A program made the position numbers and the translations under genes. Below the pieces are notes generated by a model, which did no database searches, was not told the origin of the DNA, and was given only the letters and a program-made list of their open reading frames with translations. Below are positions 35,560 through 61,091 of a stretch of 64,000 bases of DNA, in pieces (position 1 is the stretch's first letter; every line of letters begins with the position of its first letter). The DNA comes from Euglena gracilis (Eukaryota): contig CP154954.1 in NCBI GenBank assembly GCA_039621445.1, forward strand, positions 31,582,012 through 31,646,011. Direction: 5' to 3'.

Positions 35560-36100
35560 TCCCAAAAACTTCTAGAGGAGCTGCCCGGGAGTCCCAAAAG
35601 GTTTGCGAGCTGCATGGGGCAACATTTGACAAACTGGACGGCTGGCTCTTGGCATTTGCACTTTTGGACGGTAAAGGTCACATGCCTTTTTGATCACGGT
35701 GACGAGAAGCAACAGGCAGCCCCCGCCCAACGCAAAGAAATTTGTGCTAATGCCAAGGTGCAGGATCCGTCCTGGTTCCCCTCTACGTTGGCCACGATGG
35801 TCAACGCTTTGGCTGCATTGTACAGGAAATCACCCTCCCATGTCGGCTCCTTTGTGCCTTCGGTGCAGTCACATTATCCACAATTTTGTACCTTTTTCGA
35901 CGCTGCTTCTCTTCGCGAGAAGAAGCAAAAAGTCGAGGAGCAGGAGGTGCCTGTAGTGTCCGAGGAAGAAATTTTGCGGCTCTTTGACCTGACAAACTGG
36001 AACCACTTTTTGGAGAGCCAGAGGATGAATTTATTGTTGATTGCCCACTTGGGCCAAAGGCCTGAGACATTTTTGGAGCTGACGGTGTTCACCCGAGCGG
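35560..36100 (+). pseudogene. Tyrosine recombinase-like remnant (core-binding region to first catalytic Arg)
   Basis: PSTLATMVNALAALY..VVSEEEILRLF..NLLLIAHLGQRPETFLEL fits the YR box I pattern (LL..xGxRxxE/T..L). It is followed by an element terminus ending at 36318. Confidence 0.6.
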
Positions 36101-36551
36101 GAGGGTGACCGAAGCTTTGCCCAGCACTGTTTCTTAAAACTTTTGTTTTTGGTCGTCTCGCACCTCTTTGCACCGAATTCCAAATGAATCTGGTTTTTTG
36201 TAATGTTGTCCTGTTGCTTCAGTCCAAGACACCGGTTCGGGCGGGAAATTTTACGCCCGAACCGGTGTCCAAGACACCAGTTCGGGCGTGAACCCAGAGC
36301 CTCCATGCACGGTTTCAACCCGTTTATGATCACCCCCAAAGAAAGAACCTCTTGACACACCTGTGGCACCCCCCAACCTGTGGCACGAAAGCTGGCCCCA
36401 AGATCTGGCCCAAGATGTGGACCAAACTGCGCCAAACTGTCCCAAAATGTCGCGTCACCTGGTCCCAAGCTTGCCCCAAAATGTTTTTCCAAACGGCCCA
36501 AGATGTGCCCAAAATCTGGCCCAAGATGTGGCACCAAACTGGTCCCAAGAT

Positions 36552-36958
36552 CAAGGTTGACGGCTTGCTTTTTGAAACAAAAAAAACACGTTTTTGAAGA
36601 AAAAAATATGTTTTTTTTAATAATAAAAAAACCTCATGGAGGGTTTGGGGGAAATTTTTTGAAATTTTTTAGAAAAAAGTTCATTTTTTATCTTTGCAGC
36701 TTCGTAGTCCGTAAAGGACGTTGGCTTTCACATGTGCGACCTTGCCAACCACATCATTTTAGGATGAAGGGTCTGGAAAAACAAAAAATGTCACTTTTTG
36801 ATGACCAAAAAAATGACTTTAAAACTTTTTCCTCAAAAAAATGGCCATTTCTCAAGGAAAATTGTCAATTTTTGGTTTTTCAAAAAAAGTTTTTTGGGGT
36901 TGTTTTTTTGAAGAACAACATGATTTTTTTTCAAAAAACAAAAAAAATGTCAACCCTG
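36552..36958. mobile_element. hAT MITE (TIR CARGGTTGAC)
   Basis: Perfect 8-bp TSD CCCAAGAT; inserted in a CCCAAGATGTGG array (36335-37150). Other copies at about 57000-57362 and 61813-62146. Confidence 0.9.
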
Positions 36959-38884
36959 CCCAAGATGTTGCCCCACCTGTGGGCAAATGATGTGGCACAA
37001 TTTCTGCCCCAAGATGTGGCACCGAACTGGCCCAAGATGTGGTTTCAAAGTGTTACGCCAAACTGGTGCCCCAAAATGTGCCCCCCCCCCTGTGGCCAAG
37101 ATGTGGCAGCAAACTGGCCCTAAAAGATGGCTGGAAAGCTGGCCCCATTTGTGCAGGCCCAGTCCAAAAAAAAATAAAAGATGCCAGCACAGATTTTGTG
37201 AGCTTCCATGAATAATAAGATGGGTTAAGTTGGACATTCTTAAAAAAAGCTTTCCTTCTCCAGGGTTCATTTGGGAAATCTCCTGAGCAGAAAATTTTCC
37301 AAAACTGGGCCACGGACTTTTCCGAAACATACTTCATGTAATCACCTGAAACTGCAGTAGTTGGGGGGGGGGCTGGTGACGTCGCACCGCACTGCCGGGG
37401 GGGGGGGCCGTGGCTTCGCACATTGGGGGGGGGGGGGCTGGTTGACTGCGGGGGGGGGGGAGGGGTGACTTCGCACCGCACTAGTAGCAGCTGTAAACTT
37501 AAATGTACTGGCACCTCAAAGTTATTGATTTGAACCCACAAGGGGCCTTCACTTCAAGGGGCCTTCACTTCTCATCCCGAACCAGTGCCAGTTCTTGATA
37601 TGAAAGACGATTGATTTCCCGACCCAAAGAATAAAAATTTGAAAAGATGTGCGGTGTGGAGTACCTTTGGAAACAGCAGCCCAACGATCAACGGTGAGTT
37701 AACCACATTCCAATTAGGAAAAGCTCGCTGTGATCCCAATCGCGATCATTTGTACCAAAGATGTGAACACTATTTTTGAGCACTGTGCCTGCTCGAACAG
37801 AGAAATATCGCAAAGAGAGTGGTTCGACTTTAGAATTTCTTGATCCCGGACCCGGAAAAGGTGTTTTTTTGAGCCAAAAATGAGCGTTTTTTGACCCGCC
37901 AGCGCCCCGTTTCGGGCACAAAACCCTTGCATTTCAGTCAAAAGACCTCATGGAGTGGGCCGGTTTATGTGGGGGGTCAATGAAGGGGTGGGTGCACGCT
38001 TATTAAGAGCTCAGCACTATTCAAAACCTGGTTCCTGTGATTGGAAAGAAAAATCTCAAAAAAAATCTTGCCCCTTCGCAACGTACCTTCAAAAAATGCC
38101 AACCCCCCCCCCCAACTATTCCCAAAGGCCGAGGGAATAGTTGGGGGGGCATCGTAATTCTACAACGTTGCGCTCCTTTGAATTTCGGTGAAATTCGACA
38201 TGGGAATGTGTCTCTGGCTGTGTCAATCGTTCAAGTAAACTTACCCCTCAATCCAAAGCTCTTGTCATCAGACGACTAATGATGACCAGCAAATTCAGCC
38301 ACGCTGCACAGTGGAGATCAGGCTGTGAACTTTGGGATTTTGGACCCTCTCCCCCCCCCCCCGGTGAAGTTCACCGTTTGAAAGTTTACCGGGGGGTCCC
38401 GGACCTTCCCCCTCCCAACGGTGAACTTCACTGGTGAAGTTTCACCACAAGAGCACTTTTTTGGCCAAAAATGGCCAAAAATGACATTTTGGGCAAGTTT
38501 TCGGAAATTTCGATAAAACTCCAAAGACCAAAATGACCATTTTGAGAGGAAAAGGACAGGGCTGCACATAGGTATAGGTTGGCAAAAAGACCTATACCTA
38601 TATGTGGACAACCTATACCAAAACCTATACGTATGTGTCGCCTATATGTCTGAGAAAAAAAATTAAACACTCACTCATTGCATAATCCATCGGGGGGGTG
38701 AAGGGGAGTTGTGAGGCCAGAATGCATCAAATACAAAGGCGGGAAGACACCCTTCATTGTGATAATGGCGGTTCACCCGCAAGAGTCTAGGTGTTTGTCA
38801 AGACCAAAACTTTGACACAACATCGTTGAAAAGGTCAGGATCGCCTTGGGATTCATTCCTCATGGTAGAAAAATTTCTTGGGCT

Positions 38885-39125
38885 CACGAAGGGATGTCGG
38901 GATGAGATTGTCAATTTCACGAAAAGTGCCGTTTCAACAACTTTTTCATGCAATGCATTCCGTAGCTGTCTCCAAAAATTTTTGCATTCCAGAGCCGTCT
39001 CCAAAAATTTTTGCACACTGAAAGTGCGCTCCACAGTTGCCTCTGTCACAGCTATGGTGTACAAAAATATGGCAAATTCGGCCAATTCTTGAGCCACGTG
39101 GAGTTTGCTTTGATTGAAAGGATTC
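38885..39125 (-). pseudogene. hAT transposase C-terminal dimerisation domain remnant
   Basis: ELAEFAIFLYTIAVTEATVERTFSVQKF..RNALHEKVVETALFVK is a classic hATC motif; it contains a short tandem duplication. Confidence 0.85.
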
Positions 39126-40686
39126 ATGCCCGGGGTGTGGTGTGAGGTGGAAATTGTTTCATTCCCCCCCCCCCCCCGCTCCTTTAAGACCCCCATTAGC
39201 CAATGGGGGGGGGCAATTATGGGCCGGTGAGGACCCAACCCCAACCCTTTTCTTTCCAACCAATTTCTTGCGTCTCACCAAAACTACTCAATTTTTTTCC
39301 AGCATGGTTGGATTCGTCGTGACTTCCAAATTGGCATCTCTTGTCCCGAGGTCAATTGGCCAATTGGGAGGGCAAATGGGGGGGACAAGGGTATCGGCAA
39401 GTCCATTATAATTTTCACCCCGATACAAATTCAGTTGGCTTTGCCTCAGACACACGCTCTGGGGGCCATGCGGAAACGTCTCGGCACCATGCATCGGTTG
39501 TGGACAAGGTTTGTCAGGAAAGCAAGGGCCTCTTAAGCCTCAGTTAGCCTCTCAACCCCTGCAACCCTCCCGCAACGCGACTCACCCTCGATCATAAGAA
39601 GTGTGGCTGGCCATTTGGTTGTTACCTTTGGTGTTTTGTTCATGGTGTGGGTGGATAAGGATCAATTTTTTAAAAAAGGATCAAAATTTGAAAAATGGGG
39701 GGGATCAAGAAAAGAGAGCTCTTGAGAGTCCAATCCAATCTTTTAGCAACCAAATGTCTCAAACTTGCGGTGCAAGAGGAAAGGGATGGTATGGTCAAAT
39801 AAATAGCAAACAAATTTCTGCCCCTCGTAATGCAGAATGCTCCCATTTCCGGGTGATTTGGGCCCGCCACAGACCATTTTTATGACCACCGACTAGCCAC
39901 AACTAGTTTGCATAGGATTTTATTCATGGGGGGGCTTAAAAGTCGGCGGTTTTGACCTGTTAGTACATTAGAGTGGGTATTTCGACGACTAGTCGGCTGA
40001 CTACCCAGTACCCCTCCCCCAGTCTACTGCCCTGCGCCATCCACGGCTGCAACTCTTAAGGATTCGGCACCACGTAAAACTGACAAAAAACCGTCCACTT
40101 GGGGGGGGGGCTCACTATAATGCACCCGTGAACGGTTCACATGCGCACTATAGTGTACCCGTGAACGGAATGGGCCGTTTATTTATAATTTTTATAATTT
40201 TGTGGCCCACAATGTAATGAAGCGCCTTGTCAATCTGATGGAAGCCCAGATGCCCCCACCTGTGAACGCCCCAAGCGCACCCATGAACGCCAAAAACGTG
40301 AGTTTCGTTAGGATACAGCCGCGATTAGGAACCACTAAGCTACTGTGAGGAAGCCCGTGAATTTGGGTAACAGGTTTTATAAGAAAGAATTGTGGGTGTA
40401 ACCCGTTATACGGCCCGTACACGGGTTACACCCACGATTTTATATATAACCGTGTATAACAGTGGACTCAGAGGCCCGGCGCCTGCCCTGTATATCGTGG
40501 ATTGGCTTCACGCATTGCGGGTGGTTTTGAGAGCGTTTTTTGGAAAAAATTCAGTCCACGTGCCGCCTGCACTGTAATTTGTGGACTTAGTCCACGAAAT
40601 ACAGCGCAGGCGTCGGGGGGGGGGGGGGTCGGCGCCTGCACTGTATTTCGTGAAACCCTGTGTCTCCTAGTCTCTTTTCTTTGCTA

Positions 40687-41535
40687 ATGGCAAAACGCGC
40701 GGCTATTATCATGGACAGGATGCTCCCTCATCCCCAGAAAACTTCTGAATTTTTGGCCGTGTTGGAGAAAGTCATCGACGACAAGAAGAAACCCACCTGT
40801 TGTCGATCCGGTTCACGGGACTTTGCTCCAACAAGCAACAGCAAAACAGCCACATGGATCAGAAAATCAGGAGGCTTGTGCCTTGGAATTCCATCAGCTG
40901 TGTCAAGACCTACAGGCAGTGTATGATAATCTGGATGACTTTTTTGTAGCCTGGGCCGGCTGGATGATTGATCCCAGTTTGTTGGTTGAGGGCGCTGCCC
41001 AGATCAGGCAACAATGGGATCAACGGTGGGCACAGGCCGGTCAAAGATTCAGAGCCAACGCATTGAAAGCATCCTCCTTCCGCGGCTACCTGAATGCCAT
41101 GGGGCGTGTGTGCTCTTCAGCGAAGCCAAAAACCCAAATGGTGCCTTCCTCCAACTCCCAGTTTCCAAAGTTCCAGCGGTTCTTTCAGTCTGCTTAAACG
41201 GCAAACGAGGCTGTGCACCCCCCAAGAAATTTTACAAGACGACAAGTTGCCACGGGTGTTGCAGGAAGTGGACTCTTTGAGGCCCAACGGTGTATGAGGA
41301 AACTGGCTTTTCCGATTTGCGAACTTGTTGGACAACTCCTGCAAAAGCTGCCGTCGGAGGAGACGTTTCGTGGAGTGGCAACCTGGGTGTCGGGAGTTGT
41401 CGGTCATCGTTTAACTTTCAAGAACGTTGCACGACGTGCGGCAATGACCCGCTTGGCAAATTCGCCGGACGTGTTGCTGGAAGATGTAGCCAAGTATTTC
41501 AAGGTGCACAGAAATACAGTGGCCGTTGTATTGAG
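40687..41535 (+). pseudogene. Tyrosine recombinase-like remnant (N-terminal domain plus box II)
   Basis: Frameshifted peptides LDDFFVAWAGWMID..LKASSFRGYLNAMGRV..FPKF, then FKNVARRAAMTRLANS..DVAKYFKVHRNTVA (HxxR-like motif and second His). The middle of the catalytic domain appears deleted. Confidence 0.6.
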
Positions 41536-41643
41536 CATGCTGCATCATATTGGTTTTATCGACTATGCCGGGGTGCCAATCTATCCAAATTTATCGAGAC
41601 TACCCCAAAAACCAGTACCAATATCTATCCTTGAGGTAACACC

Positions 41644-43797
41644 GGGGGCGCTACACCCGTGACCCCCCCCCCCGTGACTCCTCCCGTGACCCCCCCGTGA
41701 CCCGAGAATCGAGCCTTCAATTTTCAGACAATGCATCAACCTTCATCATTTCAGCCTTTCTTTTCATTCATTATTTCATCCTGCTTTTTGATGTAGGTGG
41801 CGGCTTTGGTCGCATCAATTTTCTGGTTGAAACCATCCAAAATTTGCCTTGACATGGTCAAAAATGGAAAGAAATGCCAAGATTTGAGGTGAAACAATTT
41901 TCGACCCAAGCAATGGCGCCTTTTTGGCGTAGTGGGTGTTCCCCCCGTGTCCCCCCGCGTCCCCCCCCCCGCGTCCCCCCCGCGTCCCCCCCCCCCCGCG
42001 TCCCCCCCGCGTCCCGGATTTTGGTCGGGCACATTTTTTGGTCGGCCAAAGGAAATTATCATAGAAATTTAGGTGACACAAAAGAAAACGTGCGGAGGTT
42101 GTTGGGCCAGAGTTCTCCCCCGCGTCCCCCCCCGCGTCCCGAACCACCCCCGTAGGAATTTGACCCAAATATGTCCCATTGGCAAAATGGGTGATTGCAT
42201 AAGTTGGAAAGAATGTCATGGCAAAAAGGGGGGGAGGGGAAACATGAAATTTTTGTGGAAGAAACCCCCCCCAAAACAGAAAAGAATGGTCCTCACCCCA
42301 CCTTCCATTTGGACAACCGAAACCCTTTTTGGCACCCAACGCCCAACGCACTTTCACACCCAAAAATGGCCCGAAATCTTGTCCCCCAAACGTTGGTGCA
42401 TTTCCACACCCAGAACAGACTTTTTTTCGCCATTTTTTCAAAAATGGCCATTTTGGGCCATTTTTTTCTTCAAAAATGGCTTTGGGCCATTTTTTAAGCC
42501 CAAAATGCTCCAAAAAATGCGACAGTCAAGAAAATCCTAACAAAATTCCCTTTCAAAAAATGGAAAACATGACCAATATCGGACATAACAATCATCAAAA
42601 AATGACCACTTTCGGACCAAAAAGCATTTTTTTGTTCAAAAAATCGTCCAAGAATGGCCAAAAATGACCGATTTTAGGATCCGTGCCGCCCTTCTCGTGA
42701 TAACGTCATGGATGCTGCCTCCGGACTACCTCCAAAGTGGCATATTTCCCCCGCCCCCCCCTCCCGTGACCCCCCCGTGACCCGCACCACCCCCTTCACG
42801 TAGCAACATTTTTGGGGGGCGCTACCCCCCCCCCCGTGACTCCCCCCGTGACCCCCCGTGACCCGAGAATCGATCCTTCGATTTTCAGACAATGCATCAA
42901 CCTTCATCACTTCAGCCTTTCTTTTCATTCATTATTTCAGCCTGCTTTTTGATGTAGGTGGCGGCTTTGGTCGTTTTTCATCAATTTTCTGGTTGAAACC
43001 ATCCAAAATTTGCCTTGACATGGTCAAAAATGGAAAGAAATGCCAAGATTTGAGGTGAAACAATTTTCGACCCAAGCAATGGCGCTTTTTTGGCGTATGA
43101 ATTTGACCCAAAATATGTCCCATTGGCAAAATGGGTAATTGCATAAGTGGGAAAGAATGTCATGGCAAAAGGGGGGGTGGGGAAACATGAAATTTTTGTG
43201 GAAGAAACCCCCCCAAAACAGAAAAGAACAGTCCTCACCCCACCTTCCATTTGGACAACCAAAACCCTTTTTGGCACCCAACGCCCAACGCACTTTCACA
43301 CCCAAAAATGGCCCAAAATCTTGTACCCCAAAAAGTGCCTAACGTTGGTGCATTTCCACACCCAGAACATACTTTTTTGGCTATTTTTCAAAAATGGCCA
43401 TTTTGGGCCATTTTTTTTCTTCAAAAAAAATGTCTTTGGGCCATTTTTTTTAAGCCCAAAATGCTCCAAAAAATGAGACAGTCAAGAAAAACCTGACAAA
43501 ATTCCCTTTCAAAAAATGGAAAAAAAATGACAATATCGGACATAACAATCATCAAAAAAACGACCACTTTCGGACCAAAAAGCATTTTTTTGTTCAAAAA
43601 ATGGTCCAAGAATGGCCAAAAATGACCACTTTTTGGACCAAAAATCACCGATTTTAGGATGCGTGCCGCCCTTCTCGTGATAGGATGCAACGTCATGGAT
43701 GCTGCCTCCCGACTACCTCCAAAGTGGCATACTTCCCCCGCGACCCCCCCCGTGACCCTACCCCCCCGTGACACCCCCCGTGACCCGCACCACCCCC
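41644..43797. repeat. Two tandem copies of a ~1-kb element with GGGGGCGCTAC..GCACCACCCCC ends
   Basis: 41644-42794 aligns with 42815-43797; CCCCCGTGAC subterminal repeats. Confidence 0.9.
41932..42151. mobile_element. Harbinger-like MITE, 3-bp TSD GTA
   Basis: Present in the first tandem copy and absent at the homologous site (~43097) of the second. G-rich TIRs. Confidence 0.85.
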
Positions 43798-44613
43798 ACC
43801 CTAATTTTGAATGTCCAATGCCGATTTTGGGCGATTTTGGTTTGTTTTGAATTGTTTACACAAAAATTCAACCACTTTCAACCATTAGGGTTCGTCTGGG
43901 CCATTTTTTGCCGCTTTACAATACAGCACACAGGACAGTGTTGCCATTGTTAGGTCGTTTAAAGCAGCATGATTTTTCAGGTGAAAATCCCTCAAGATGA
44001 CCATGAAATTGACCCGAACTAGACCAAATTGGTTGGAATTGGCCAAAATTGCCAAAATGTCCAAAAAAGTGCAAACAGTCCCAATTGCAACCCAAAACGT
44101 AACCTCCAACAACAATAAACATGACCTTGAAGGGAGGTAATTGAGATTCACCACCACAAGGATGTGGACCTCATTTTCCTGTGAGTCACATGGCTGGCCG
44201 TCGGTTGGCCGACGGCGTGCTCCACCAAAACTCATGGGCAATCTCAAATGACAAAGAGCTGAGAGGTGATGGAATCTTGGTGGGCGTCAAATGAATTTGC
44301 ATTTTGGGAACCTTGCAAAATCTTTTGTGTGCAATACTGAACTTGGGCATTTTACAGGGGCAGAGGCATTGAGAAACCGGTAGTTGTTCTTGAAGTATTG
44401 TTTTGAACTTTGTGGAAAAGTGTTTAATGACGAATGAATTAGAGTGAATAATATGTCCCAAGTTTTGATGTGATTTTGAATGCTTTTGGTAAAGAAATAA
44501 GGGGCTTTGCAAACATATTGCATTCCTCGTGTCGAGGACAATGTATTTTCCGAAGGGTCTCAGGGCAGTCTTTGGTCGACATCTGCTACAGTGCCTCAAT
44601 TTGGCTATTTTTT

Positions 44614-45420
44614 TTGCAACCGTGTTAAGTCCACGATGTACACTGGCCGTGAAAACCATGTTCAATCCACGTGTACAGCGGTGGTGTAGATGTGTTTGTA
44701 ACACGCTTTCCGTGCAATGTACACGTGTTACCAAAAAGAGTAACCATGCTTTCCGCACAATGTACACGTGTTACCAAAAGAGTAAACACACTTTCCTGCA
44801 ATGTACACGTGTTACCAAAAAGAGTAAACACGCTTTCCATACAATGTACACGTGTTACCGAAAGAGTAAACATGCTTTCCTGCAATGTACACGTGTTACC
44901 AAAAAGAGTAAACACGCTTTCCGTACAATGTACACGTGTTGCGAACACGGTAAATTTGCGTTGTACCGTGTTTTGAATGAAAAATATTGTACAGGGTGAC
45001 AGCATAACCAGAATGATTTCACCTTTTGGAGGGCTTCCACAAACTGCTTAACAGTGGGAGGGGCAGGCATGTGGGCCTCAGCGAGGTTAGCCAGGCTCAA
45101 AAAAAAAGAGTAAACACGCTTTCCTGCAATGTACACATGTTACCAAAAAGAGTAAACACGTGCAATGTACACGTGTTACGAACACGTTACATTTTCATTG
45201 TAGTGTTTGTAACCCGGTACAATTGCAATGAACCAAGGTACCCCGTTTTTGTATACGTGTTCACTATAATTGGCATTTTTTTGCGCGAATCACGTGGACT
45301 TGAACACGGTTTTCACTACCGGTGTACATTGTGGACTCTTAACACAGTTTCAACATTGTTTCGTGTTCTGATCCCGCTTTTTTTTACCAGGAAAACTGGG
45401 GGCGCCTTCGGCGCCCCCGG
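44614..45420 (-). mobile_element. Deleted copy of the 59384-61091 element
   Basis: Same ~60-bp inverted repeats, ~40-bp TGTACACGTGTTAC arrays and terminal GGGGGCGCC-TTC-GGCGCCCCC hairpin. Only ~80 bp of the ORF remain (45015-45097). Confidence 0.9.
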
Positions 45421-46642
45421 TCACAACGTCATTGGAAGGAATCCACATGTAACGGAAAGATATTAGGTATTGCCCCAATAAGTATCAGCTGCCAAAATAA
45501 CAAAAGGGGTAAACATGCAATTTTTTTTAATAAGAAGAATTAAAAAGAAATAACAAGAATGAATCTGGCAACAGTTTTTGCTTCACAGCAAAATTCAGCA
45601 TTCAAACCTCAAGAAGGACGGAATAAACGTGGTCTCAAAGGAATGAAAACTTGGAATACCCTACAAACACAGCCTTTGAAAGCACAGTATCAAATCCCAA
45701 TGGTGTACACAATTTTTTGTTTCCAAAAACAAGTGATTTGCGGTGCAAGTCGCCCAACGTACAGATTGCACACATTCCTCGGTTGCACAGCTGAAGACAA
45801 CGTTCATCACGTTTCTGTTCCATGTTCTCCACTTTCGAGGTCACAAAAGTTTTGGCATGTCCATTTGGGATTCCCTTTTTGGCCTCCTTCACGTCTTGAG
45901 TTATTGGATTGGCAGCATACCACTTCATTCATGATGGCAAGCTCTTTTTTCTGTTGCAGTGTCATCGTCAACCTGGATGCCTTAATTGTTGGAGAATTCT
46001 GACTGTCTAAAGGGCCAGCTTAAAGCCCCTTTGAAATTTTACTTCTTGCCCACGTGCGTGGGCAAGAATTAAAATTTTTTGCCATTCCTTTGTTCCATTG
46101 AAATTTTAGGCCGTGAAACCTGAGCCTATGCCGACATTTGCATGCAAATTTACTCTGAGGAAGTGACCTTTCTGTAAGAAAAATCGGGGTTGAATCACGG
46201 TTCGCCTTCGGCACCCCCCGTTTCCGCACCGGGAATTGTGATTGAACCCCGATTTTGGCTTAAAACGTTACCCAAATTCACGGTCTTCCCCACAGTAGCC
46301 TAGCGGTTCCTAACGAGATCCCTATCGGCCAAAAAATCTCGTTTTTAGCATTCACTAGTGAACTTTGGGCATTCACTAGTGCGCTATAGCGCACTAGTGA
46401 ATGGCCACTTTTGATCACTAGTCCCAAGTATGCACTAGTGAACATATCACCAGTGCGCACATGTTCACTAGTGATTAGAATCCGAATTTTTTTTATGTTT
46501 TTTTACCCTCCAATCTCGGACACTGATGTTGTTCCAGTCCCACCGTGCATTGCGGTGGGCAGAAGGCAATCGGCCAAGGGCAAGGAGCGCGTGAAGCGTC
46601 CTCGGACCCCGACGCCCCCGCCAGGCCTCCTCGCGCCGCCAT

Positions 46643-48947: not shown

Positions 48948-48958
48948 GGCCTTTCGAA

Positions 48959-49842: not shown

Positions 49843-49844
49843 TC

Positions 49845-50669: not shown

Positions 50670-51263
50670 GGGCGCCTAAGAAGGTGGTATACTTCACCAC
50701 ATAGAGTACAACGGAGGTTAGGCACAGCGGGGGGGGTTGAGGGTTGAGGGGGGGGGGGGCGAGCGGCCACGCGGGGGGGAGGGGGGAGAGGGGGGGGAGG
50801 GAGAGGGGCGCCGCGCGGCTGGCGCGCATCCAAAAATTGGTGATTTTTGGGTCCAAAAAGTGGTCATTTTTTGCCATTTTTGGGGGGGGGTGCAGGGGGG
50901 CGAGCGGCCACGCGGGCGGCCGCGCGGGGGCCGCGCAGGGGGGGGGGGGAGGGGAGGGTTCCCGACCCCCCCAAGCAGCGCGCCTAGCCTCCAACGAATA
51001 CTTTTAGCAGCCTGGACGGCAGTGTCACTGAAAGCACTGGCATGCATTCTTGCTGCGTTTTGAAAAGTTCACGCGCATGAATGCACCATCCTGCCCATCC
51101 CCCAAAAAACATAGTCCAAGGATCCAAAAACAACAGCACGCCGGGAGCAAATTTCAATGTACTCAAAAAACACTTCAAAGGGGCCTTTTTCTTAGGGCCT
51201 ATTGCATCATTTTCATCACTGCTGGGGAGGGAGCCCAAAAGGGCATCCTCAGCAGTGCCGAAC
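50670..51263 (-). pseudogene. N-terminal domain plus PHD-finger ORF remnant, split by a MITE
   Basis: EDALLGSLP..FFGGWAGWCIHARELF. Removing 50713-50992 restores AFSDTAVQAAKSIRCTLCGEVYH. Confidence 0.7.
50713..50992. mobile_element. Harbinger-like MITE, 3-bp TSD AAC
   Basis: TIR GGAGGYTAGGC; excision restores the reading frame of the host ORF. Confidence 0.85.
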
Positions 51264-52012
51264 GTTAGACTGGGGGGGGGTAGTGGGTAGTCGGCTGACC
51301 ACTCAACTGGTCGGCCGACTAGGCCTAGTCGGTAGCTAGTCGGCGAGACGGGGTGGGGGGGGGGGGTAGTGGGTAGTTGCGGCCGACTACCCACTCTAAT
51401 GTACTAACGGGTCAGTATCGCCGACTTTTAAGCCTGAAAAAAACTTTTGTCCAAATCACCTCAACACCAGTCAAAACCCACCCAAATGGCTCCAAAATCC
51501 CCCAATCGGGGGTGAATATGCAAAATCTTGGGGGGGAATGTCCACTTTGGACCACTATTGGCAAAAGAACACCTCTCCCCATTGGATTTTCAATATAATG
51601 TCAAAATTTCGCACAAAAAGGACTTAGCCCTCCAAGTATGTTGCCGACATAAAAAGACATTTTGTTATTTGAGGGGGGGGTGCGGGGCGGAGCCCCCCCC
51701 CCGCCTATGCCAAAGTGAGCCACAAAAACGACTTAGACCCCGAGCATGTTGCCAACATAGAAGGGATTTTGTTTTTGAGGCTCGGGTGGGGGTGGAGGGG
51801 GGAGTTTTCTGCATCCTCCTTATTATTGTGTGGCCTTTCCTTCGGGTCCAATAAAAATGCACACGATCTTTTTTCGGCTCATTTTTGTGATTTGGAGAAT
51901 TCCAAAATCGCCAAACAACAACAAGAGACAAGGCAGTACAGATGGCCATTCCCCCCCCTGTACAGGACAGAAAAAAGGGGGTCCAAACCCCCCCCCCCCA
52001 TTTCCTACCACT

Positions 52013-52994
52013 TTGAAACCGTGTATTGGGGCTCTGGCTTCACGCCCGAACCGGCGTTCTGGACGCCGGTTCGGCGCAGAAATTTCTGCGCCGAACCGGT
52101 GTCCAGAACGCCGGTTCGGGCGGGAAAACGGCGTCCTGGGGACCGAAAATGAAAAGTGCCAAAAAGTGTCCAAAATGGTTTGTAGACATGAGGCAATCAT
52201 ATCTGAGCACTTTTTGGGGGGTATTTGGCCAGAATTGGGGTATTTTGTGCAACAATTTCCATTTGGCCAAATCTGGGGATTTTCTGAAATAGAATACCAT
52301 GCAGCAGGGCTGAAATCTAAGGCCATCTAAAACCCTTGAGAAGGGTTATCGATCAAGGGGCAACATGGCAGGTGAACAGTGGATTTTGGAATTTGCGAAA
52401 AGGGTCCAAAAATCGTAATTCTGAAAAAACCCAAGGGGTCCAGCTAAAATTTCCTAAACATAATTCTGAAAAACCCAGGGGAGGGTCCAACCAATTTTGA
52501 AAACACCCAGGGGGGCCAAAATTTCCCAACTGTAATTAACATTTCCCAACAATTTTTGAAAAATTCCCGTGGGGGGGGTCCAGCCAAAATTTCCCAACCG
52601 TACTTCTGAAAAACCCTAGGGGGGGCTCCAGCCAATTTTTTTTTAACCGTGTTTGTGAAGAAACCCAGCCAAAATTTCTGAACCGGAATTCTGAAAAAAG
52701 GGGGCATCAAATCCCAACCATAATTCTGGAAAAAAAACCAGCGGGGTCCAACCGAAAATTCGGCATTGCAAATCTGAAAAAATCTGGGGGGGGTCCAGCC
52801 AAAATTTCCCAACCGTGATTCTGAAAAAACCTAGGGGTGGTCCAACGAAAAAAAATTTCCAAATCGTAATTCTGAAAAAAAAACCTTTTGATTGATGGGT
52901 AACCTGGCATGAGACGGATGAAAACATCAATCGGCCGATCGACATGGCCATGTTCAGAAACTGGGTATTCAGAGCCCCTAATCCACGGTTTCAA
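52013..52994. mobile_element. Non-coding element with TTGAAACCGTG inverted ends
   Basis: Left TTGAAACCGTGTATTGGGGCTCTG vs right CAGAGCCCCTAATCCACGGTTTCAA. The left end is the reverse complement of 36225-36318. A degenerate ~55-bp tandem array fills 52415-52880. Confidence 0.75.
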
Positions 52995-53025
52995 CAACTG
53001 TGTCCAGAACGCCGCGGCCGCGCAA

Positions 53026-53265
53026 AGGCCGCGGGGGGGGGGGGGGCCCGGACCCCCCCCCCCCCCCCGGGGCGCGCCTAGCCTCCTTCGGGTTGGAACC
53101 AAAATTTTGTTCTCGAGACAGCCAAATTTAGGAGGCTGATTCCTAAGGGCCGCGGGGGGGGGGGGGGTCCCGGACCCCCCCCCCCCGAGCAGCGCGCCTA
53201 GCCTCCTTTGGGTTGGAACCAAAATTTTGTTCTCGAGACAGCCAAATTTAGGAGGCTGATTCCTA
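53026..53265. repeat. ~120-bp tandem duplication
   Basis: GGCCGCG(G)n..GCGCGCCTAGCCTCC..GGCTGATTCCTAA occurs twice. Confidence 0.9.
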
Positions 53266-54394
53266 ATTCCAGGCAAAGTTGAGGTTGGTGATTCCTAATT
53301 TGGTGTGGGTTAGTCCTAATTTGTTGTGGTAAGATCCTAATTTGTCAAAGATTTTCTCGCAGCAGATTCCTGATTTCGCCGTCCCAAAAATGGTGTCTCC
53401 CCCATTTCACCCCCACCCCGCGTCCCAGACACCCCCATTGGGATGTGCCACTCAAAAAAAAGGACATGTGCCTCTCAAATGAGAGCAGAGCTGGCGCTTT
53501 TTTGGTTTTTTTAAAAAACGGTTTTTTTTTGAAAATGAAATTTGACATAAGCACTACCGTCTCTGTGGGTTCCAAAGTGGGACGCGGGGGGGACGCGGGG
53601 GGGACGCAGGGGGGGGCGCGGGGGGGACGCGGGGGAGACACCCCCAATGGTGTGCGAAGTCCTAATTTTTGAAAGGTAACCAAGGATGGATATTGGATGT
53701 CGGCCCACATCGGGTTTATCCAAAACCTTGGAGACAGGCCGTATAACGGGTCAAGGCGCCCTTGACCCGTTTTACGCCCTGTATACAGGTAACAGCTATT
53801 TTCAATGGCAACTGTCTCGGGGATAGGCAGTACAGTTGGCCATTTTCGGGACCCCCCCGGCCGCCCACGCGGCCGCTCGCCCCCCCCGGACCCCCCCTCC
53901 CCCCACTGTGCCTATCATAAGCAAGAAAAAGACATTTTTTTGAGCAAAAATGGTCCAAAAATGGCCAAAAATGACCACTTTTTGGACCTGAAAATTTCAA
54001 AAAAAGTTCAACCTCAATGTCAACGACCTCAACCTCAATGTTACCTCAATGCCCAAAATTCAAAAAAATGAACTCACAAAAAGCATGGATTGGGCCATCT
54101 CCTCTTCTAAACCCTTCCTCAAAGGCAAGTTTGACAGCTTTTATGTCAATTTACAACATATGTGGGTGGAAACAAGAAAAAATAGTGGGGTGCCGATTCA
54201 AAACTTGAAATAAGTGACCAATTGCCCAATGTTTGAAAAAATCTAGGTAAGGTTCGGCAAATTTTGAAATTCTGGGAATTTTTCATTTCAATTGAAAAAA
54301 AATCAAAAAATTCGAATTTTTCGAAATTTCAAAAATCGCGGAACGCGAATCTTGGTATTCCTAATTCATCAGAATTATTGGTGCTCGGCGGAAG

Positions 54395-54822
54395 AGACTT
54401 GCATTTTGTGGACTGTGCAAAGGAAATCAAAATTCTACTGGACACATGGGGAGGAGGACCCTCTTCCCCAAAATGCCACCAGCGAGTTACATTCAGACAG
54501 CAGCACCCACGCCTGGGGGATTAGACATCCATACAGGAGGCATTGTTCAGGAAGGTTGGATGTCAAAGAACTAAGTGCAGCAATAAGCACCGTAAAAAGC
54601 CTAACAAAACCTAGAGAAACAGTTTTACTTTCAGTGGACAATCAGATAATTTATTATCACTGAACAAAGGGGGAAGGCAAAAAAGACCCCTTCAACACAA
54701 TGCTCAGAACATTTTTCAAATGGTGCATGGAGCACAAAATAAACCTGCAAGTAAAGTGGGTTCCTTCAAAAGGATGTCTTTCGGACCCCATAAGCAGATG
54801 GGAAATGGACAGGGGAGATTAA
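54395..54822 (+). pseudogene. DIRS-type retrotransposon RNase H remnant
   Basis: Frameshifted peptides ELHSDSSTHAWG, DVKELSAAISTVKSL, VLLSVDNQIIYY and INLQVKWVPSKGCLSDPISRW. Confidence 0.8.
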
Positions 54823-56257
54823 TCACTGAACTTTTCTTCTTTTTTTTGAGTGCACGACATAACTTTTTGCATTGGGGGATTTCCTGTCCAAATGTGGAGT
54901 CTCGTGAAACATGGCTGTTTTTTGTTGTTGTTTTTATTCAAAGAAGCTTGTACGATGCAATTGTCTCCTGGTTTCCAGCATGATACTGGGGAATTGTTTC
55001 CACCTTGCACAGATAAACAGGAAATTTTTGGGGGGCTTTGTTCCACAATGTCTGCTTTGTTGCAAAATGGATAACATTTTTCACCAACAGGAATTCATTT
55101 GGGACGTCTTCATGTGTGGCAGCACGTCTACCCCACAATTTCAGGAATGTCCCAGATTTAGGTCCAGTGGCCATCATTTTTAGGTCCGGTGGACACTGTT
55201 TTTAGGTTCAGTGGACACTACTTTTAGGTTCTCTGGCCTGAATTTAGGTTCCGTGGCCCTCATTTTAAGCCCTGTGGCCACGATTCTCAGGTATGGTGGC
55301 CAACATCCCAGCAGTTAGCTGTAATTCAAGTTTTAGGTCGATGCTGATATTGGGGCAAAGTCCTAATTTTGGGTGGAAAATTTCTAATTTTTCGGTGCCA
55401 ACTCCTATTTTGGGAGGAAATGCCAGGTTTTTATATCGAGAACTGTGTCCCAGACACCGCCTGGGACACCGGTTCGGACGGTAGCCGAACCGGTGTCTGA
55501 GGCTTGTTTTGCAAAGTTTTTTTTCATTTCCATGCATACCAACCCCCCCCCCCATTTGGCCGCCCTCGGGGTGGCCCGGACCCCCCTTTTGGCCAAATAA
55601 GGGGGGGGACAAATGGGGGTCATGTCAGGTGGCAACTCGTTAAAAACAAAGTCAAGAAAGCGCGTTTTCTTTTTCATTTTTTTTTAAAAAAAACACATTC
55701 ATGGTCTTGGTTGGAAAATCTTTCTTTTAATTTCAGTCTCCCCCCGCTTGGGATCAGACATTGGAATGGTTTCAAGCAACAAAAGTAGGAATAATGGCAT
55801 AAAAATGGCCGATTTTGACTATTTTTGGGAAAACAACCAAAAAGACTGGTTTTTGTGACAATTTCGTTGATTTTAGGTTCATCCTTGTGATCAAGGAAGG
55901 GAAATTTGAAACCATCATCAAGGCTGGATCGAGGTTGAGGTATTGAGGTTGAGGTTGAGGTTGAGGTTGAGGTTTTCCAACCTCCATCTTTCCTCAATGT
56001 CACCTCAATGCCAAAATCCAAAGGAAAACGACTCAACAACAAAGTGAATTGAAAAAGAGTGTTACAAAGAGAGGCAAATTACCTGGATTCAAGGTTCGGC
56101 GTTTTTTCCGTTTCGAATAATTCGAATTTTTCAAAGTTGAATTATTCGAATTTTTTGTGAGGAAAATTTCCAAAAATTCCACAGGGTGAAGCACTGCAAG
56201 GGGGATCTGTTTTCCTTCCGCTGGCTACAGTCCTTCCCACGGTGACGGCATTTCCAA

Positions 56258-57863
56258 TAGGGTTGTGCCAATTAATCGTTTCGACCTGGCGAACGATTAA
56301 TCGCGATTAATCGGGGTGTCTCGGACGATAAACAATTAATTGGTCCCTTCCGATTTTTTGATGATGAAATCTGCCCGAGAATTTATCATTCAGACATAGA
56401 CCATTTCTTTGTGTGCCCGCTGACGAATTTTTGTTTCGTTGTTTGTTGACACGCAGAACGAAGCTTATTAGGAACTGCTGTATCTTAATCAGAATCGCGC
56501 GATGTTTCAGGGGCACGTTCGTTGACTCGTTGGCCACTTTTGGGGACAAGGCAATACAGTTGGTCAAACCTTGGGACCCCCCCTGTACAGTTCCAACCCC
56601 CCCTCCTGGGACCCCCCCCTCCCCCCCCACTTCCAACCCCCCCGAGACAGATGAAAAAAAATTATTGTTTTTCATCCATAACGTTGCATCGTGATAAAAT
56701 TGATCATTTTTTGAAAGGTAGGATTTCCTTGACCAACACGTTTTTGGGATGAAGTTTGGGCCATTTTTGACAAAATTCCGTTTTTGGTGTGGAAATGCAC
56801 CAGTTTTTTGGCACTTCTTTTAGGGGACAAGATTTTTGGCCATTTTTGGGTGTCAAGTGGGCGGACAAGGACACACAAAAGCTCATTTTTTTAAAAAAAA
56901 ATGCTTTTAAAAAAAAGAATGGCGAAGGATCGATTCTCAGGTCACGGTCACGGGGGTGTAACGGGGGGGGGGGGTAACGGGGGTAGCACCCCCTAAAAAA
57001 AAATACGTTTTTTAAAAAAAGAAAAAAAACCTCATGGAAGGTTTGGGGGATTTTTTTTGAAATGTTTTTTTTTAGAAAAAGGCCTTTTTTGATCTCTGCA
57101 GCTTCGAAGGCCGTAAAGGGTGCTGGCTTTCACACGTGCCATGAAAAGGATTTTCGGATGAAGGGTTTGGAAAAACTAAAAAAACGTCACTTTTTGATGA
57201 CCAAAAAAAATAACCTTAGAACTTTTTCCTCAAAAAATGGCCATTTCGCAAGGAAAAAGGTCAATTTTTACTTTTTCAAAAAGAAAACATGTTTTTTTTT
57301 GTTTTTTTCAAAAAAACATATTTTTTGTTCTTTTTTGAAAAAACAAAAAAACGTCAACCCTGGCTCAATTCCGCATGGTGTGCCAAGGGGGAGTGATTGA
57401 AGCGGCTTCCTGCCTTTCTGCTAAGTGTTTAAAGTGAAAACACCGGCTACCATTCTTTTTACAAGAGACAAATATTTCGTAAAATGCATCTGAATTCGCA
57501 AAATCCATCATTGCCAACCTCAATTGGACAAAAAATGTCGCAACTGTCTCGGGGGTAGGCAGTACAGTTGTGATTTTCTGGTGACCCCCCCTCCCCCCCC
57601 TTGTACAGCTTCCAACCCCCCCCCCTCGGACCCCCCCTCTCCCCCCCTGTGCCTTGTCTCCTTTAACAACCGTTTTCATGGTGTACCACCAAGTAGTGTG
57701 CTATCTGACTGACTACCCCACGAGTTTTTGTTAATTTCAACAAGTATTGTGCATATTGTGGTTTACATCCACAATGACCGATTAATCGCCATGGGCCGAA
57801 TGATTCAATTAATCGGCGATGAGGAACGATTAATCGATTAATCGATCAATCGAAACAGCCCTA
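56258..57863. mobile_element. hAT-type MITE (TAGGG..CCCTA) carrying a nested insertion
   Basis: Flanks TTTCCAA and TTTCGAA; CGATTAATCG repeats; inverted copy at 62904-63393. Confidence 0.9.
56542..57661. mobile_element. Harbinger-like element (TIR GGRGACAAGGCA, TSD TTT) containing further insertions
   Basis: The empty site CCACTTTTAAC is preserved in the 62904-63393 copy. Confidence 0.85.
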
Positions 57864-59383
57864 TTTCGAAGGTACTCACAGACAGAAAAAACATCTTCTC
57901 GAGAAGTACTTCAGGTAAATTTTGCCTGCCTTTTGCGGAAAATCCCGCTCGTGACTCCAACGGGGGGTTTTTTTTTGCCGGCCCCCCAAGCCATGGCCCC
58001 GCAGTTGCAGAAGTCCACCCCCACTCCGCAGAACCCTCCTGATAAAATGGACAAAAAACCAACCCCCTCCCCCAGACCACCCCACGCGCAGAAGCCCCCC
58101 CCCCCAAGCCACCCCACCCCGTACCGGGGGGGGGGGGAATTAAAGCTAGACAAAATTGGAAGCCGAAAAAATTGGTGCCAAACCTGAAAACAGCCCTGAA
58201 AAATTTGGCAGGTTTTGTTTGCAAGATGACTGGAAAAAGTGTGATTTTGAAATTTTTGAGGCAGGATTTTCAAAGCCGGAAAAATTTGGCAGTATTTCTG
58301 TACGCCAATATTTTCCCAATGAACTTTTTCGGCCTTCAAGTTTTTCCCCTAGTAGAAGCCAAAACCCCCTGCACCAAACCCTCTCTACATCTAGCCCAAA
58401 ACTAGCCAACATGTGGCCGAAAACTGGCCACCATCTGGTTCAGAACTGGCGTTCTTTGCCATTGAAAAGCAAACAGGAACAGCAACATGAACCAGAAAAC
58501 ACACACGTTGTTGGCCGTAATACAAACGGAGCAGTTTAGCAGGGACATGCTCAGGTCCAGATTACCAAACCTCCTTCCAATAAGTTCATTTCAAACTTCA
58601 GTAATTTCTTGCCCGTGAGATCTGAAACAGAGAAAAATGTACATTCACTAAAAGAATTGGCAAATTCACCATATGCTCCTGCATCCGGCTGGCATCTTAG
58701 AGTTGCCTGCATTGGCCTCTGAAAATTCAGAACTGGCACATCAAAATACCGCAGGCATTTGCTATACGAAATCAGCTTAACAACAGGACCCAGCTTCCGT
58801 CACGCCGTCGGCCAGCCGGGGTCATGGGGGGGGTCATTGGTGGGTCACAAGGGAACACCACATTCTTGGTGGCTAAATTGGGAATCACCGAACACGAATT
58901 TTTGGGGAAAATACTTAAATTAGGAATCCCCACCTAAAATTAGGATTTTGAAAAAATTAGGAATCACCATCCCAAAATTTGCGAAATTTATTCCTCAAAA
59001 TTAGGAATCCACCTGAAAATTTTGTCAAAGTGGGCATCATCGGCCGAATTTTTTCCGAAAAAAATTGGTCGAAAAGGGTCTTAGGTTGGGTCACGGGGCG
59101 GTCACGGGGGGGGGGGGTCACAGGTAACACCCCCTCTAAAGGCATTTTTTTGGGTCATGTGAAAGCATTTCCAAATCTGTGTTTTCTGGTGCAAAAAAGC
59201 ATGCTTTCAACATCCAAAAAAACAACAACAAAAAATGAATGAAGCTGCAGAGATAAAAAATTGAACTTTTTTTAAAAAAAAACTTTCAAAAAATATTCCC
59301 CCCAAACCCTCCATGACGTTTTTTTGTTTGTTTCCCGTTGTTTGTTGTTTGTTTGTTTGTTTGTTTGTTTGTTTGTTTGTTTG

Positions 59384-61091
59384 TTTGAAACCGTGTTAAG
59401 TCCACGATGTACACCGGCCGTGAAAACCGTGTTCAGTCCACGTGTACAGCGGTGGAAAACGTGTTTGTAACACGCTTTCCGTACAATGTACACGTGTTAC
59501 GAAAAAGTGTTAACACGCTTTCCGTACAATGTACACGTGTTACCAAAAAAGTAAACACGCTTTCCTGCGGTGTACACGTGTTACCAAAAGGAGTAAACAC
59601 GCTTTCCGTACAATGTACACGTGTTACGAAAAGAGTAAACACGCTTTCCTGCAATGTACACGTGTTACCAAAAAGAGTAAACACGCTTTCCATACACTGT
59701 ACACGTGTTACAAACACGATACATCTGCATTGTTCCGTGTTATAAATGAAAAATATTTTGTGGGGTTACAGCATAACTAGATTGCATGGACCGATGGACA
59801 TACTGCTCAACGGATGCAAGAAGCAACGCAGCGGCGGGAAGTTGGCGTATTGTGGGGGGGGAGGGTACGCAGACGCATGCTGCAAACACCTCGTGGCCTG
59901 TTGGCCAGGAACAATAGCACATCACGAAAGGCATCACAAACATCCCGGGCATTTCCAGGGACGTTTGGGAGCTCGGCGCAGGTCAGCACACACAAAATGG
60001 TAGGTGTCCGCACAACTCACACAGGAAACAGACCGAGCTACGTCGGAGGTGGTGGGGAAGCCAACTTTCACACCACAACGGGGACATAAGATGTCACCGT
60101 TGGGAGACGGAAACAGAGCCGGAACAGTTGCCAAAAGTTGGTTTACGGTGGAATGTTCTGGGGCGGGAGGAGCCTCCCAGTTTAGCTGCCGACTCCACGC
60201 CGCCACGTTGCGGGCGGCAGTTGCCGCACTGCTCCCCGCTTTGTCGACATGTTCGTCGAACGAACCCGAAAATCTGTTCCAGCTCTCTCCGTACGGGCAG
60301 CAACGCAGGCGAGTTGTTGCTCGGGTGTTGCATACAACACCCGAGCATCAATGCACCAGCGGGCCCACCCCAAAAAAACAGTCGTCCAACGTCGCGTGTT
60401 GTACCCCATGGGCTGCGCAAACCCCCATGTATTCTGTAAAACAATTCAGGGCAGCCATGCGGTCGCGACGGTAATCTTTTGCCGAGACCAGATCTGGGGG
60501 GGAAGTTCACCAAGTAAGGCATCAATTTCCTCAGATGGAGATTTCACCTTCTGGAGGGATTCCACAAACTGCTTAACAGTGGGAGGGGCAGGCATGCGGG
60601 CCTCAGCGAGGTTAGCCAGGCGCATCATGGCTGTGAAGGGTGTGAAGGCGTTTTAGAAACACGTTTTAGCATAATGCAAACGTGTCACAAAAAAGTGTTA
60701 ACACGCTTTCCGTACAATGTACACGTGTTACCAAAAAAGTAAACACGCTTTCCTGCAGTGTACACGTGTTACCAAAAGGAGTAAACACGCTTTCCGTACA
60801 ACGTACACGTGTTACAAACACGGTACATTTGCATTGTACCGTGTTTGTAACACGGTACAATTGCATTTACCAAGGTACCCCATTTTTGTACACGTGTTTA
60901 CTATAATCGGCATTTTTTGCGCGAATCACGTGGACTTGAACAGGTTTTCACTACCGGTGTACATCGTGGACTCTTAACACGGTTTCAAACATTGTTTCGT
61001 GTTCTGATCCCGCTTTTTTACCAGGAAAACCGGGGGCGCCTTCGGCGCCCCCGGTTTTCCTGGTAAAAAAGCGGGATCAGAACACGAAACA
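59384..61091 (-). mobile_element. Element with ~60-bp TTTGAAACCGTG inverted repeats, 40-bp arrays, PHD ORF and terminal fold-back
   Basis: Inverted repeats at 59384-59443 and 60927-60989; hairpin at 60993-61091; (GTTT)n on both flanks. Confidence 0.9.
59934..60628 (-). pseudogene. YR-N-terminal-like domain fused to a PHD finger
   Basis: MMRLANLAEARMPAPPTVKQFVESLQKV..FLGWARWCIDARVL..LNWEAPPAPE..CPRC..CVSCADTYHFVCADLRRAPKRPWKCPGC (C4HC3 pattern); several frameshifts. Confidence 0.8.

Follow-up and report, generated by a model that had tools for sequence, protein, structure and literature searches.

Integrases of the Tn916/Tn1549 type are tyrosine recombinases (YRs) which act on imperfect inverted-repeat ends, form a circular intermediate and integrate without a target-site duplication (TSD). 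Several eukaryotic systems come close to the elements described here. Cryptons are described in the excerpts available of PMC3212892 and PMC13465315 as being without terminal inverted repeats (TIRs) and also without long direct repeats, showing only terminal direct repeats of 4-6 bp; their lack of TIRs had already been stated in the initial annotation of this locus. Starships are, according to an excerpt of PMC13465315, YR-mobilised DNA transposons, some of which have TIRs. In Helitron2/Helentron elements, a TIR marks one end; at the other end, a sub-terminal inverted repeat lies just before a terminal hairpin, and a TSD is usually missing, as described in part of PMC3627910. Here, we analyse a group of decayed, TIR-bounded elements with a recombinase gene in a 64,000-nucleotide stretch of the Euglena gracilis contig CP154954.1 (positions 31,582,012 to 31,646,011, forward strand). 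This whole 64-kb stretch is called the window, and all positions are counted from its first letter.

The window is repeat-rich eukaryotic DNA with a G+C content of 42-54%. Between 35.5 and 61.1 kb, direct reading, self-BLAST, an inverted-repeat search, a palindrome scan and end alignments reveal seven defective copies (A, B, C, C2, D, E and F) in three related subfamilies, with a common order of parts: a palindrome, a TIR of 25-66 bp, subterminal motif arrays, open reading frame (ORF) remnants, further arrays and a second TIR. In B, C and D, the three copies having both a palindrome and ORF remnants, the ORF points away from the palindrome. The units seen measure about 1-1.8 kb, and an intact element would be about 3 kb. 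On balance, we lean towards the view that the region holds decayed compact DNA transposons with a single gene, encoding a Cre-like YR that continues through an acidic linker into a PHD finger at its C-terminus, and these elements probably form a new TIR-bearing group of YR DNA transposons. The initial annotation had seen several loci with one layout and the hairpin upstream of the ORF, in agreement with the seven copies, the longer end alignments and the reading direction in B, C and D. Its description of the inverted repeat as mostly AACCGTG does not extend to B and A, where the TIR begins CTTAAAACGTTACCC, common to both and distinct from that motif. Taken alone, the 8-mer AAACCGTG is weak (8 matches against 3.4 expected, with 8 being reached by 2 of 100 shuffles); the case for inverted ends rests on the longer alignments. 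By eye, the outermost TIR bases in these alignments are alike across the subfamilies, reading TT[A/G]AAAC(C)GT.

The recombinase family was traced with a 188-aa peptide encoded at 35542-36108, which itself has no Pfam hit. A full HMMER search returned 58 proteins at E<=1e-3, including 25 at E<=1e-10. At least two of the 58, P0046 and P0053, are TPR-repeat proteins according to a Pfam scan and were rejected as false positives, and P0011, a 3836-aa insect protein with 28 short matched stretches, was set aside as a probable one. Based on tblastn, the family lies on 35568-36087 (E), 40723-41212 and 41345-41527 (D) and 60622-60266 (C), so the YR-like peptides originally noticed at 35560-36100 and 40687-41535 are indeed matched by the family. 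Full-length relatives are 397-494 aa long; the partial relative P0052 is longer (507 aa), and its single ORF runs from the recombinase through an acidic linker to a PHD finger at the C-terminus. All relatives come from metagenome or transcript-type assemblies (ENA, Logan, JGI/IMG, NCBI), in which they stand alone on contigs of 1.4-3.5 kb and bear at most the name 'hypothetical protein'. Phage_integrase (PF00589)/Phage_int_SAM gave no match at E<=1 in 10 members, at E<=0.01 in four more, nor in the window peptides, and there was no Pfam hit to DUF3504 (PF12012) or DUF3435 in the family members scanned. When the pattern of the family alignment A3 was sought in metagenome contigs, none of the 217 matches was a relative, and the same holds for all 23 matches in viral contigs. 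Language-model neighbours of the family include eukaryotic clusters with PF00589, which is taken as a lead only.

The fold was tested on a homologue, P0006, and not on the decayed window copies. Its AlphaFold model, built with 29 aligned sequences, has a pLDDT of 87.5 and a pTM of 0.76. The Foldseek comparison with this model, one of the checks proposed at the outset, places Cre chains at the top (E 4.8e-8, TM 0.64-0.67); XerA, XerH, lambda Int and IntI are also among the 39 proteins matched at E<=1e-3. VIA-align superposes the model on Tre/Cre with a Z of 21.0 and a root-mean-square deviation of 3.7 A over 293 residues, covering both domains, followed by XerH (Z 17.1), the Tn1549 integrase (15.7), IntI (14.9), lambda Int (14.4) and poxvirus topoisomerase IB (12.4; type IB about 12). 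Seven residues are invariant in nine members with 36-46% identity: R225, K257, K344, D345, R348, R349 and Y378 in P0006 numbering. An hhalign alignment that is not significant (E 0.063) pairs R225 with R173 of Cre and K257 with K201. Past K257, the active site was mapped by eye against Cre from the sequence and the predicted helices, without a scored alignment; in this manual mapping, R348 falls on R292 and Y378 on Y324. Judged from the model, the family has a tyrosine-recombinase fold and, by this mapping, an R-K-R-Y core with the two textbook histidines replaced. Of the R-K-HxxR-H-Y signature anticipated by the initial annotation, the residues read as R, K, R and Y are invariant in the nine members, while K/D and V would take the two canonical His positions.

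Element C (59384-61097, minus strand), delimited by self-BLAST, the inverted-repeat search, tblastn, folding and end alignment, has the most complete set of parts around the gene. Its TIRs at 59381-59444 and 60992-60927 are about 66 nt long and about 90% identical in the end alignment. One array of 42-bp tandem units lies inside each end, at 59469-59711 (5.7 units) and 60673-60818 (3.4 units), both in the same orientation. Between them are an N-terminal remnant (aa 7-128) at 60622-60266, with a tblastn E of 2.7e-6, and the PHD-finger end of the ORF at 60179-59940, matching the C-terminal part of P0052 (E 4e-8); the PHD finger in this peptide has a Pfam E of 0.0016, which is below the Pfam cutoff. 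Since both gene ends, the N-terminus and the PHD end, sit between two intact TIRs, the gene belongs to element C. The suggestion that a YR gene lies in a fixed orientation within TIR-bounded units is hereby borne out by tblastn and the P0052 match. The ORF ends are separated from the arrays by only about 40 bp on one side and about 200 bp on the other, leaving no space for a second enzyme gene, including a reverse transcriptase (RT), unless another deletion removed one. Directly beyond the right TIR lies a palindrome at 60993-61091, whose 48-nt arms match perfectly around a loop of 3 nt; its folding energy is -66.3 kcal/mol (z -19), a value matched by none of 200 shuffles. Both flanks of C are (GTTT)n, and C and its palindrome form one block inside a single microsatellite run.

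Element C2 (44613-45421, plus strand) was recognised by self-BLAST to C and retains the TIRs, the arrays and the first ~80 nt of the ORF region. It is an internal-deletion derivative of C of about 810 bp, with 44609-45421 matching 59380-61055 in three collinear blocks at 89-96% identity. Its TIRs pair 44613-44673 with 45354-45291 in the end alignment, and its array holds 5.7 of the 42-bp units. C2 ends just after an inner 12-bp hairpin at 45395-45421 (z -2.1; 5 of 200 shuffles as good), and its hairpin-adjacent arm is 95% identical to that of C.

Element B (46176-47983, plus strand) rests on folding, end alignment, motif matches and a protein match. From left to right it consists of a palindrome at 46180-46256 (z -4.3; 0 of 200 shuffles as good), the left TIR at 46258-46293, palindromic motifs at 46351-46475, an insertion at 46637-47100, an ORF remnant with the acidic linker and a decayed PHD finger at 47125-47673, further motifs at 47886-47930 and the right TIR at 47949-47983. 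The TIRs align over 36 columns (46258-46293 against 47983-47949). Three TTCACTAGTGAA palindromes lie on the left side and two on the right. The ORF remnant matches the C-terminal part of P0052, with a frameshift present. The nested insertion is 464 bp long, has inverted ...GGGAAATTGATATC... ends and is packed with 11-bp repeats of the TTTTCCGCAA type. One contig from each of four sequencing runs joins 46636 directly to 47101, with seven letters fitting either side, and therefore other B copies exist without the insertion. This suggests that the 464 bp are a small element in its own right, possibly flanked by a duplication of 7 bp.

Element A (40085-40386, minus strand) is a 5' fragment only, with a TIR at 40325-40386 and an array of the GTTCACGGGT motif at 40124-40290. 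It is of the B type, as 47 nt of its TIR have 91% identity to that of B in the inverted-repeat search and the two align over 55 columns. On its inner side A is cut off by another repeat; read by eye, a repeat common to 39960-40085 and 51280-51420 (..GGGTAGTCGGCCGACTA..CCCACTCTAATGTACTAAC..) adjoins it there. On its outer side lies a palindrome at 40388-40439 (-22.3 kcal/mol, z -6.3; 0 of 200 shuffles as good), to which no strand is assigned. This palindrome is homologous to that of B and stands tip-to-tip between A on the left and D on the right, a few nt from each TIR tip, with the upstream tips of both elements facing it. The initial annotation had given it to the ORF of D; the hairpin is present, but it is not D's alone, being related to the hairpin of B and abutting the TIR of A as well. 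A separate hairpin with a 12-bp stem at 53737-53771 contains a 15-mer, GGCCGTATAACGGGT, identical to the loop region of the 40388 palindrome. It is possibly a relative of this palindrome family, and no adjoining element is seen.

Element D (40446-41660, plus strand), found by tblastn, motif matches and sequence reading, has a C-like 5' tip, TATATAACCGTGTATAAC. A 15-nt motif occurs four times at 40488-40655, followed by the start codon at 40687, 240 bp inside the tip, and ORF remnants for aa 14-179 (40723-41212) and aa 320-384 (41345-41527). One of the matches is to P0052 aa 222-275 (61% identity, tblastn E 3e-15). D carries a frameshift, a stop and an internal deletion, and its 3' end is missing. 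To the right, D is truncated by a tandem duplicate of another repeat, with 41662-41931 pairing with 42824-43097 and 42151-42772 with 43094-43758, at 96% and 88% identity.

The E and F copies share the third type of end. The ORF remnant of E (35568-36087, plus strand) covers approximately aa 64-236 of the family, from the N-terminal domain of core-binding type as far as the box-I arginine (LGQRPETF), with a best E of 7e-34 in tblastn with 11 family members. Its 3' end (36228-36318, plus strand) consists of subterminal palindromes, including the one at 36228-36269, and a TIR with the tip ...CACGGTTTCAA at 36318. This end is 85% identical, in reverse orientation, to the left end of F at 52013-52103, and E thereby couples a recombinase ORF remnant to an F-type TIR. 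Element F (52012-52993, minus strand), defined by end alignment and the palindrome scan, is a non-coding derivative of about 980 bp resembling a miniature inverted-repeat transposable element. Its TIRs (TTGAAACCGTG.ATT.GGGGCTCTG) are accompanied by CCGGTTCGGGCG palindromes and pair 52012-52036 with 52993-52969 over 25 nt; the same TIR recurs at 36318, the end of E, and inverted pairs of CACCGGTTCGGGCG are present in both E and F. The early description of the units at 44614 and 52013 as non-autonomous fits both, the former being a deletion copy of C and the latter non-coding with a TIR common to E. The flank past the right tip of F is again homologous to the subterminal part of F, at a level reached by none of 1000 shuffles. 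In run X2, 36 contigs have a loose end at 52970 with which the F TIR becomes complete. A TTGAAACCGTG site at 4439 was ruled out as a further copy because it has no element features. In metagenome contigs, the F-type TIR pattern was found at two loci, both by chance, with no similarity to the window or the protein family.

The four hairpins listed in the initial annotation, at 40388, 45398, 46180 and 60993, are all present, the one at 45398 as the 12-bp inner hairpin only. By eye, the palindromes begin 0-3 nt from the TIR tip. Their arms align best with the TIR of their own element, scoring 17, 21 and 24 compared to 11-16 in cross-comparisons; these scores are reached by 92, 28 and 8 of 2000 shuffles, the value of 28 belonging to the arm of 40388-40439 against the TIR of A. 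In C, the similarity is collinear over the whole arm. No solo copies of these palindromes were found in the 64 kb. The term 'external hairpin' thus holds as far as the position at the tip is concerned, but not in the sense of an unrelated structure, since the arms resemble the element's own TIR and one palindrome is common to two elements. As far as the sequence goes, it may be a TIR-derived foldback, either co-mobilised with the element or serving as a preferred insertion landmark. That a palindrome arm resembles its own TIR and that one palindrome lies tip-to-tip between two elements are new observations of this study.

No direct repeats of at least 4 bp flank B, C2 or F, the three old copies judged, under any boundary tried, in line with the earlier remark that a convincing TSD is missing. 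C is uninformative in this respect because it lies in the (GTTT)n run. In both B and F, the last base of the 5' flank is a C and not a T. Contigs from other sequencing runs add to the picture: 14 DNA-type runs of one organism contain at least half of the sampled words of C, and 140,074-175,861 contig records from four runs fall on 41301-61300, mostly at 90-95% likeness. Since the contigs of the four runs match in such large numbers, the families are abundant in that organism. Within these 20 kb, the bins 51306-53306 and 46637-47303 have by far the highest summed contig depth, and few sequences of the organism seem more abundant than the F-type element and the TTTTCCGCAA repeat. Among the matches listed, none of the contig joints lies at a palindrome boundary and none represents an empty site for B, C, C2 or F, which speaks neither for nor against the palindrome being part of the element.

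To see which other enzymes the region may encode, the window ORFs of at least 95 aa were scanned; 14 of the 235 were left out as being of low complexity. The remaining 221 contain no recognisable protein family except the weak PHD finger and a few stray matches, and in particular no RT (RVT), RNase H, DDE, Helitron_like_N or PIF1/helicase family. The DDE or Rep-helicase enzymes to be checked for are accordingly absent from the units and the window ORFs scanned, and the 'neighbouring DDE elements' mentioned initially are unconfirmed. For the ORF at 38798-39274 (minus strand), which by eye is similar to the dimerisation region at the C-terminus of hAT-type proteins, Pfam gives no support. The same applies to 54268-54821 (plus strand), which by eye resembles the RNase H-like end of a retroelement (..VDNQ..WVPSK..SDPISR.., one internal stop), even when read through the stop. 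Before 54784, the sequence departs from that of the window in 40-48 contigs of each of the four runs, marking a high-copy repeat boundary. Rfam and tRNA scans of the window gave no matches.

Based on these observations, the following course of transposition can be proposed. The gene would lie ~240 bp inside one TIR and read away from it, with a palindrome of diverged TIR copies abutting the gene-upstream tip. The recombinase, which we infer to mobilise the elements, would bind the TIR tips and the subterminal motifs and synapse both ends. The ends could then be joined conservatively via a 3'-phosphotyrosine intermediate, giving a circle in which two TIRs meet in a palindromic joint. As with Tn916/Tn1549-type integrases and in the model for Cryptons (PMC3212892), the circle would re-integrate without target duplication. 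Tethering of the enzyme to chromatin is a probable role of the PHD finger, and the tip palindrome might act as a strong outer half-site at one end. It would either be carried in a composite unit, as favoured for C and C2, or act as a landmark for tip-to-tip insertion, as favoured for A and D.

Several points weigh against this interpretation. The seven copies, all from one ~26-kb stretch (35.5-61.1 kb of the window), are the whole sample; each of them is broken, and the material includes neither an intact copy nor an empty site, and neither a circle junction nor a polymorphic insertion. Pfam YR families are found in none of 16 family members, and the family hidden Markov model retrieves no recombinase from the PDB sequences, leaving no sequence-level tie to any known YR. 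In the manual mapping, the first His position (HxxR) is K344/D345, with Asp in place of the histidine and Lys beside it, and the second His/Trp position is V370. The similarity between palindrome arms and TIRs is modest (p ~0.05 to 0.004 per element), D may have no hairpin of its own and the hairpin of F is not intact. Moreover, recombination between inverted sites inverts and does not excise, unless asymmetric spacers direct the outcome, and long TIRs with subterminal repeats, classic features of DDE cut-and-paste elements, are what is seen here. These features would suit TIR/hairpin units moved in trans by another enzyme, either a Helitron2/Helentron-like Rep-helicase or a DDE transposase encoded elsewhere, with the YR-PHD gene as an accessory or captured passenger. 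Every copy here is non-autonomous, and a terminal hairpin following the TIR at one end is how Helitron2 is built, in which, according to an excerpt of PMC3627910, the 3' asymmetric terminal inverted repeat (ATIR) is immediately upstream of the 3' hairpin and some Rep-helicase (RepHel) genes are reversed; the lack of a TSD is a further parallel. A Crypton inside a TIR/TSD Mariner unit, MarCry-1_FO, is also on record in part of PMC3212892. However, the same gene occupies the same place and orientation in three subfamilies with different TIRs, and this constancy disfavours random capture. The TIRs are 25-66 nt long against 8-15 in Helitron2, the palindromes measure 52-99 nt, and the T^T target of Helitron2 is not evident, given the 5' flanks of B and F. 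The scan of 221 ORFs without any Helitron_like_N, PIF1 or DDE family points the same way, although one window cannot speak for the genome, and in C only the ~40 and ~200 bp outside the ORF ends would be left for another gene. Overall, we regard mobilisation in trans as rather unlikely.

Whether the palindromes belong to the elements at all is a question of its own. They might be independent short foldback repeats next to which elements prefer to insert, within a few nt of one stem base or the other and with the gene-upstream tip towards the palindrome. The arrangement at 40388-40439, flanked tip-to-tip by A and D with their upstream tips inward, fits this, and that palindrome is homologous to the one of B and not to that of D's relatives; the TIR-like arms could be bound by the recombinase, and the tip of F also adjoins F-like sequence. 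On the other hand, the adjacent arm of C and C2 is as well conserved as the rest of the element, C and its palindrome sit as one block in a single (GTTT)n run, and the 64 kb hold no solo palindromes, which makes independent palindromes a doubtful explanation with some claim to A and D. A third possibility, that the recombinase pieces derive from DIRS-like YR retrotransposons and the units are derivatives that lost RT and RNase H, appears very improbable. DIRS elements do pair inverted terminal repeats with a YR (in the excerpt of PMC13465315); the nearest named Atlas cluster, a lead only, is ALOG + Phage_integrase, a pairing linked to DIRS1-type elements in part of PMC3537659; and the stretch at 54268-54821 is RNase H-like by eye. 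Yet in the homologous ORFs the N-terminus, the catalytic domain and the PHD end are contiguous, and these fill C and D between the TIRs without room for an RT. No RVT or RNase H family occurs in the window ORFs scanned, including 54268-54821 read across its stop. Neither the 188-aa peptide nor profile A2 found longer fused relatives, which is weak evidence, and the homologues stand alone on their short contigs.

Weighing all this, we retain the interpretation of the elements as YR-PHD transposons. More tentatively, they may represent an unclassified superfamily of YR-PHD-driven eukaryotic DNA transposons with long TIRs, in which a TIR-derived tip palindrome acts as a recombination or targeting site that is carried along or homed to, the targets being palindromes and the tips of other elements. 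No description of small TIR-bearing YR transposons with a tip palindrome, nor of a YR-PHD fusion, was found in the papers that the full-text searches brought up; Repbase was outside this search, and an earlier description under another name is possible. If true, the class of eukaryotic recombinase-only transposons, represented by Cryptons, which the sources define by the absence of TIRs, would be widened, and the rule that TIRs indicate a DDE transposase, used in automatic repeat annotation, would be blurred. Eukaryotes would then also have a parallel to the YR systems directed by hairpins or palindromes, its compact Cre-like enzyme acting on defined sites of ~40-60 bp in chromatin. The tip-to-tip arrangement offers a testable model of target choice by such elements. 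The protein family has no Pfam model so far, and since homologues occur across four sources (ENA, Logan, JGI/IMG and NCBI), many 'hypothetical' proteins would gain an annotation from a profile. Being small and self-contained, a Cre-like recombinase that has a chromatin reader and acts on definable sites could furthermore serve as a tool.

Besides the elements, other repeats were noticed in the window. A 120-bp unit occurs twice at 53027-53266 with G14-CCCGGA-C16 hairpins, with similar sites at 50880-50980, 37388-37476 and 61439-61485, and long G/C homopolymer runs and GGGGACGCGGGG-type repeats are dispersed over the window. A dispersed repeat rich in A/T runs (..AAACCTCATGGAGGGTTTGGGGG..) is present at least four times (36600-36958, 56997-57362, 59241-59325 and 61916-62081). 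The palindrome GTCGGCGGCCATTTTGGCCGCCGAC lies in two repeat copies ~3.2 kb apart (13793-13819 and 16958-16988; 13992 and 17145). A short interstitial telomere-like run, CCCTAA x3, is located at 61789-61812.

Compared to known systems, the elements share with Helitron2/Helentron the arrangement of inverted ends and a tip hairpin, but they have longer TIRs (25-66 nt against ATIRs of 8-15 bp), palindromes of up to 99 nt and a YR fold where Helitron2 has RepHel, which is absent from the 221 window ORFs. Inverted terminal repeats and a tyrosine recombinase are also found in DIRS elements. These, however, also code for RT/RNase H (and a methyltransferase), and an internal complementary region belongs to their structure, whereas the window ORFs hold no RVT/RNase H; an internal complementary region was not searched for here. 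Starships are of giant size, transport cargo and have a 'captain' with DUF3435, in contrast to the units of ~1-3 kb without a DUF3435 hit described here.

With Cryptons (F/S/A/I), the elements have in common that they are eukaryotic DNA transposons with a YR as the sole enzyme, no RT and no classical TSD, for which a circle-and-integrate model is proposed; here, 'YR only' rests on the contiguity of the homologous ORFs, the window copies being deletion derivatives. They differ from Cryptons by their TIRs (66 nt in C, 36 in B and 25 in F), subterminal arrays and tip palindrome, by the lack of 4-6 bp terminal direct repeats in B, C2 and F (three old copies), and by having no DUF3504/Phage_integrase Pfam hit and a PHD finger in place of GCR1_C or DUF3504. 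Structures of the Tn1549 integrase on end DNA and on circle-junction DNA match the model with a Z of 15-15.7. Tn916/Tn1549 are large bacterial elements with arm-binding domains and Xis, unlike the small eukaryotic repeats with PHD finger and tip palindrome of the window. The closest structural counterpart is Cre of phage P1 (Xer/lambda-Int type), with a two-domain fold that matches over nearly the full length (Z 21, 293 residues) and with the Arg, Lys, Arg and Tyr kept. At 11-15% identity, this relationship goes undetected by sequence, and the family deviates from Cre by the replacement of the two catalytic His/Trp residues, an extra N-terminal segment, the C-terminal PHD finger and the location of its gene in a eukaryotic repeat element.

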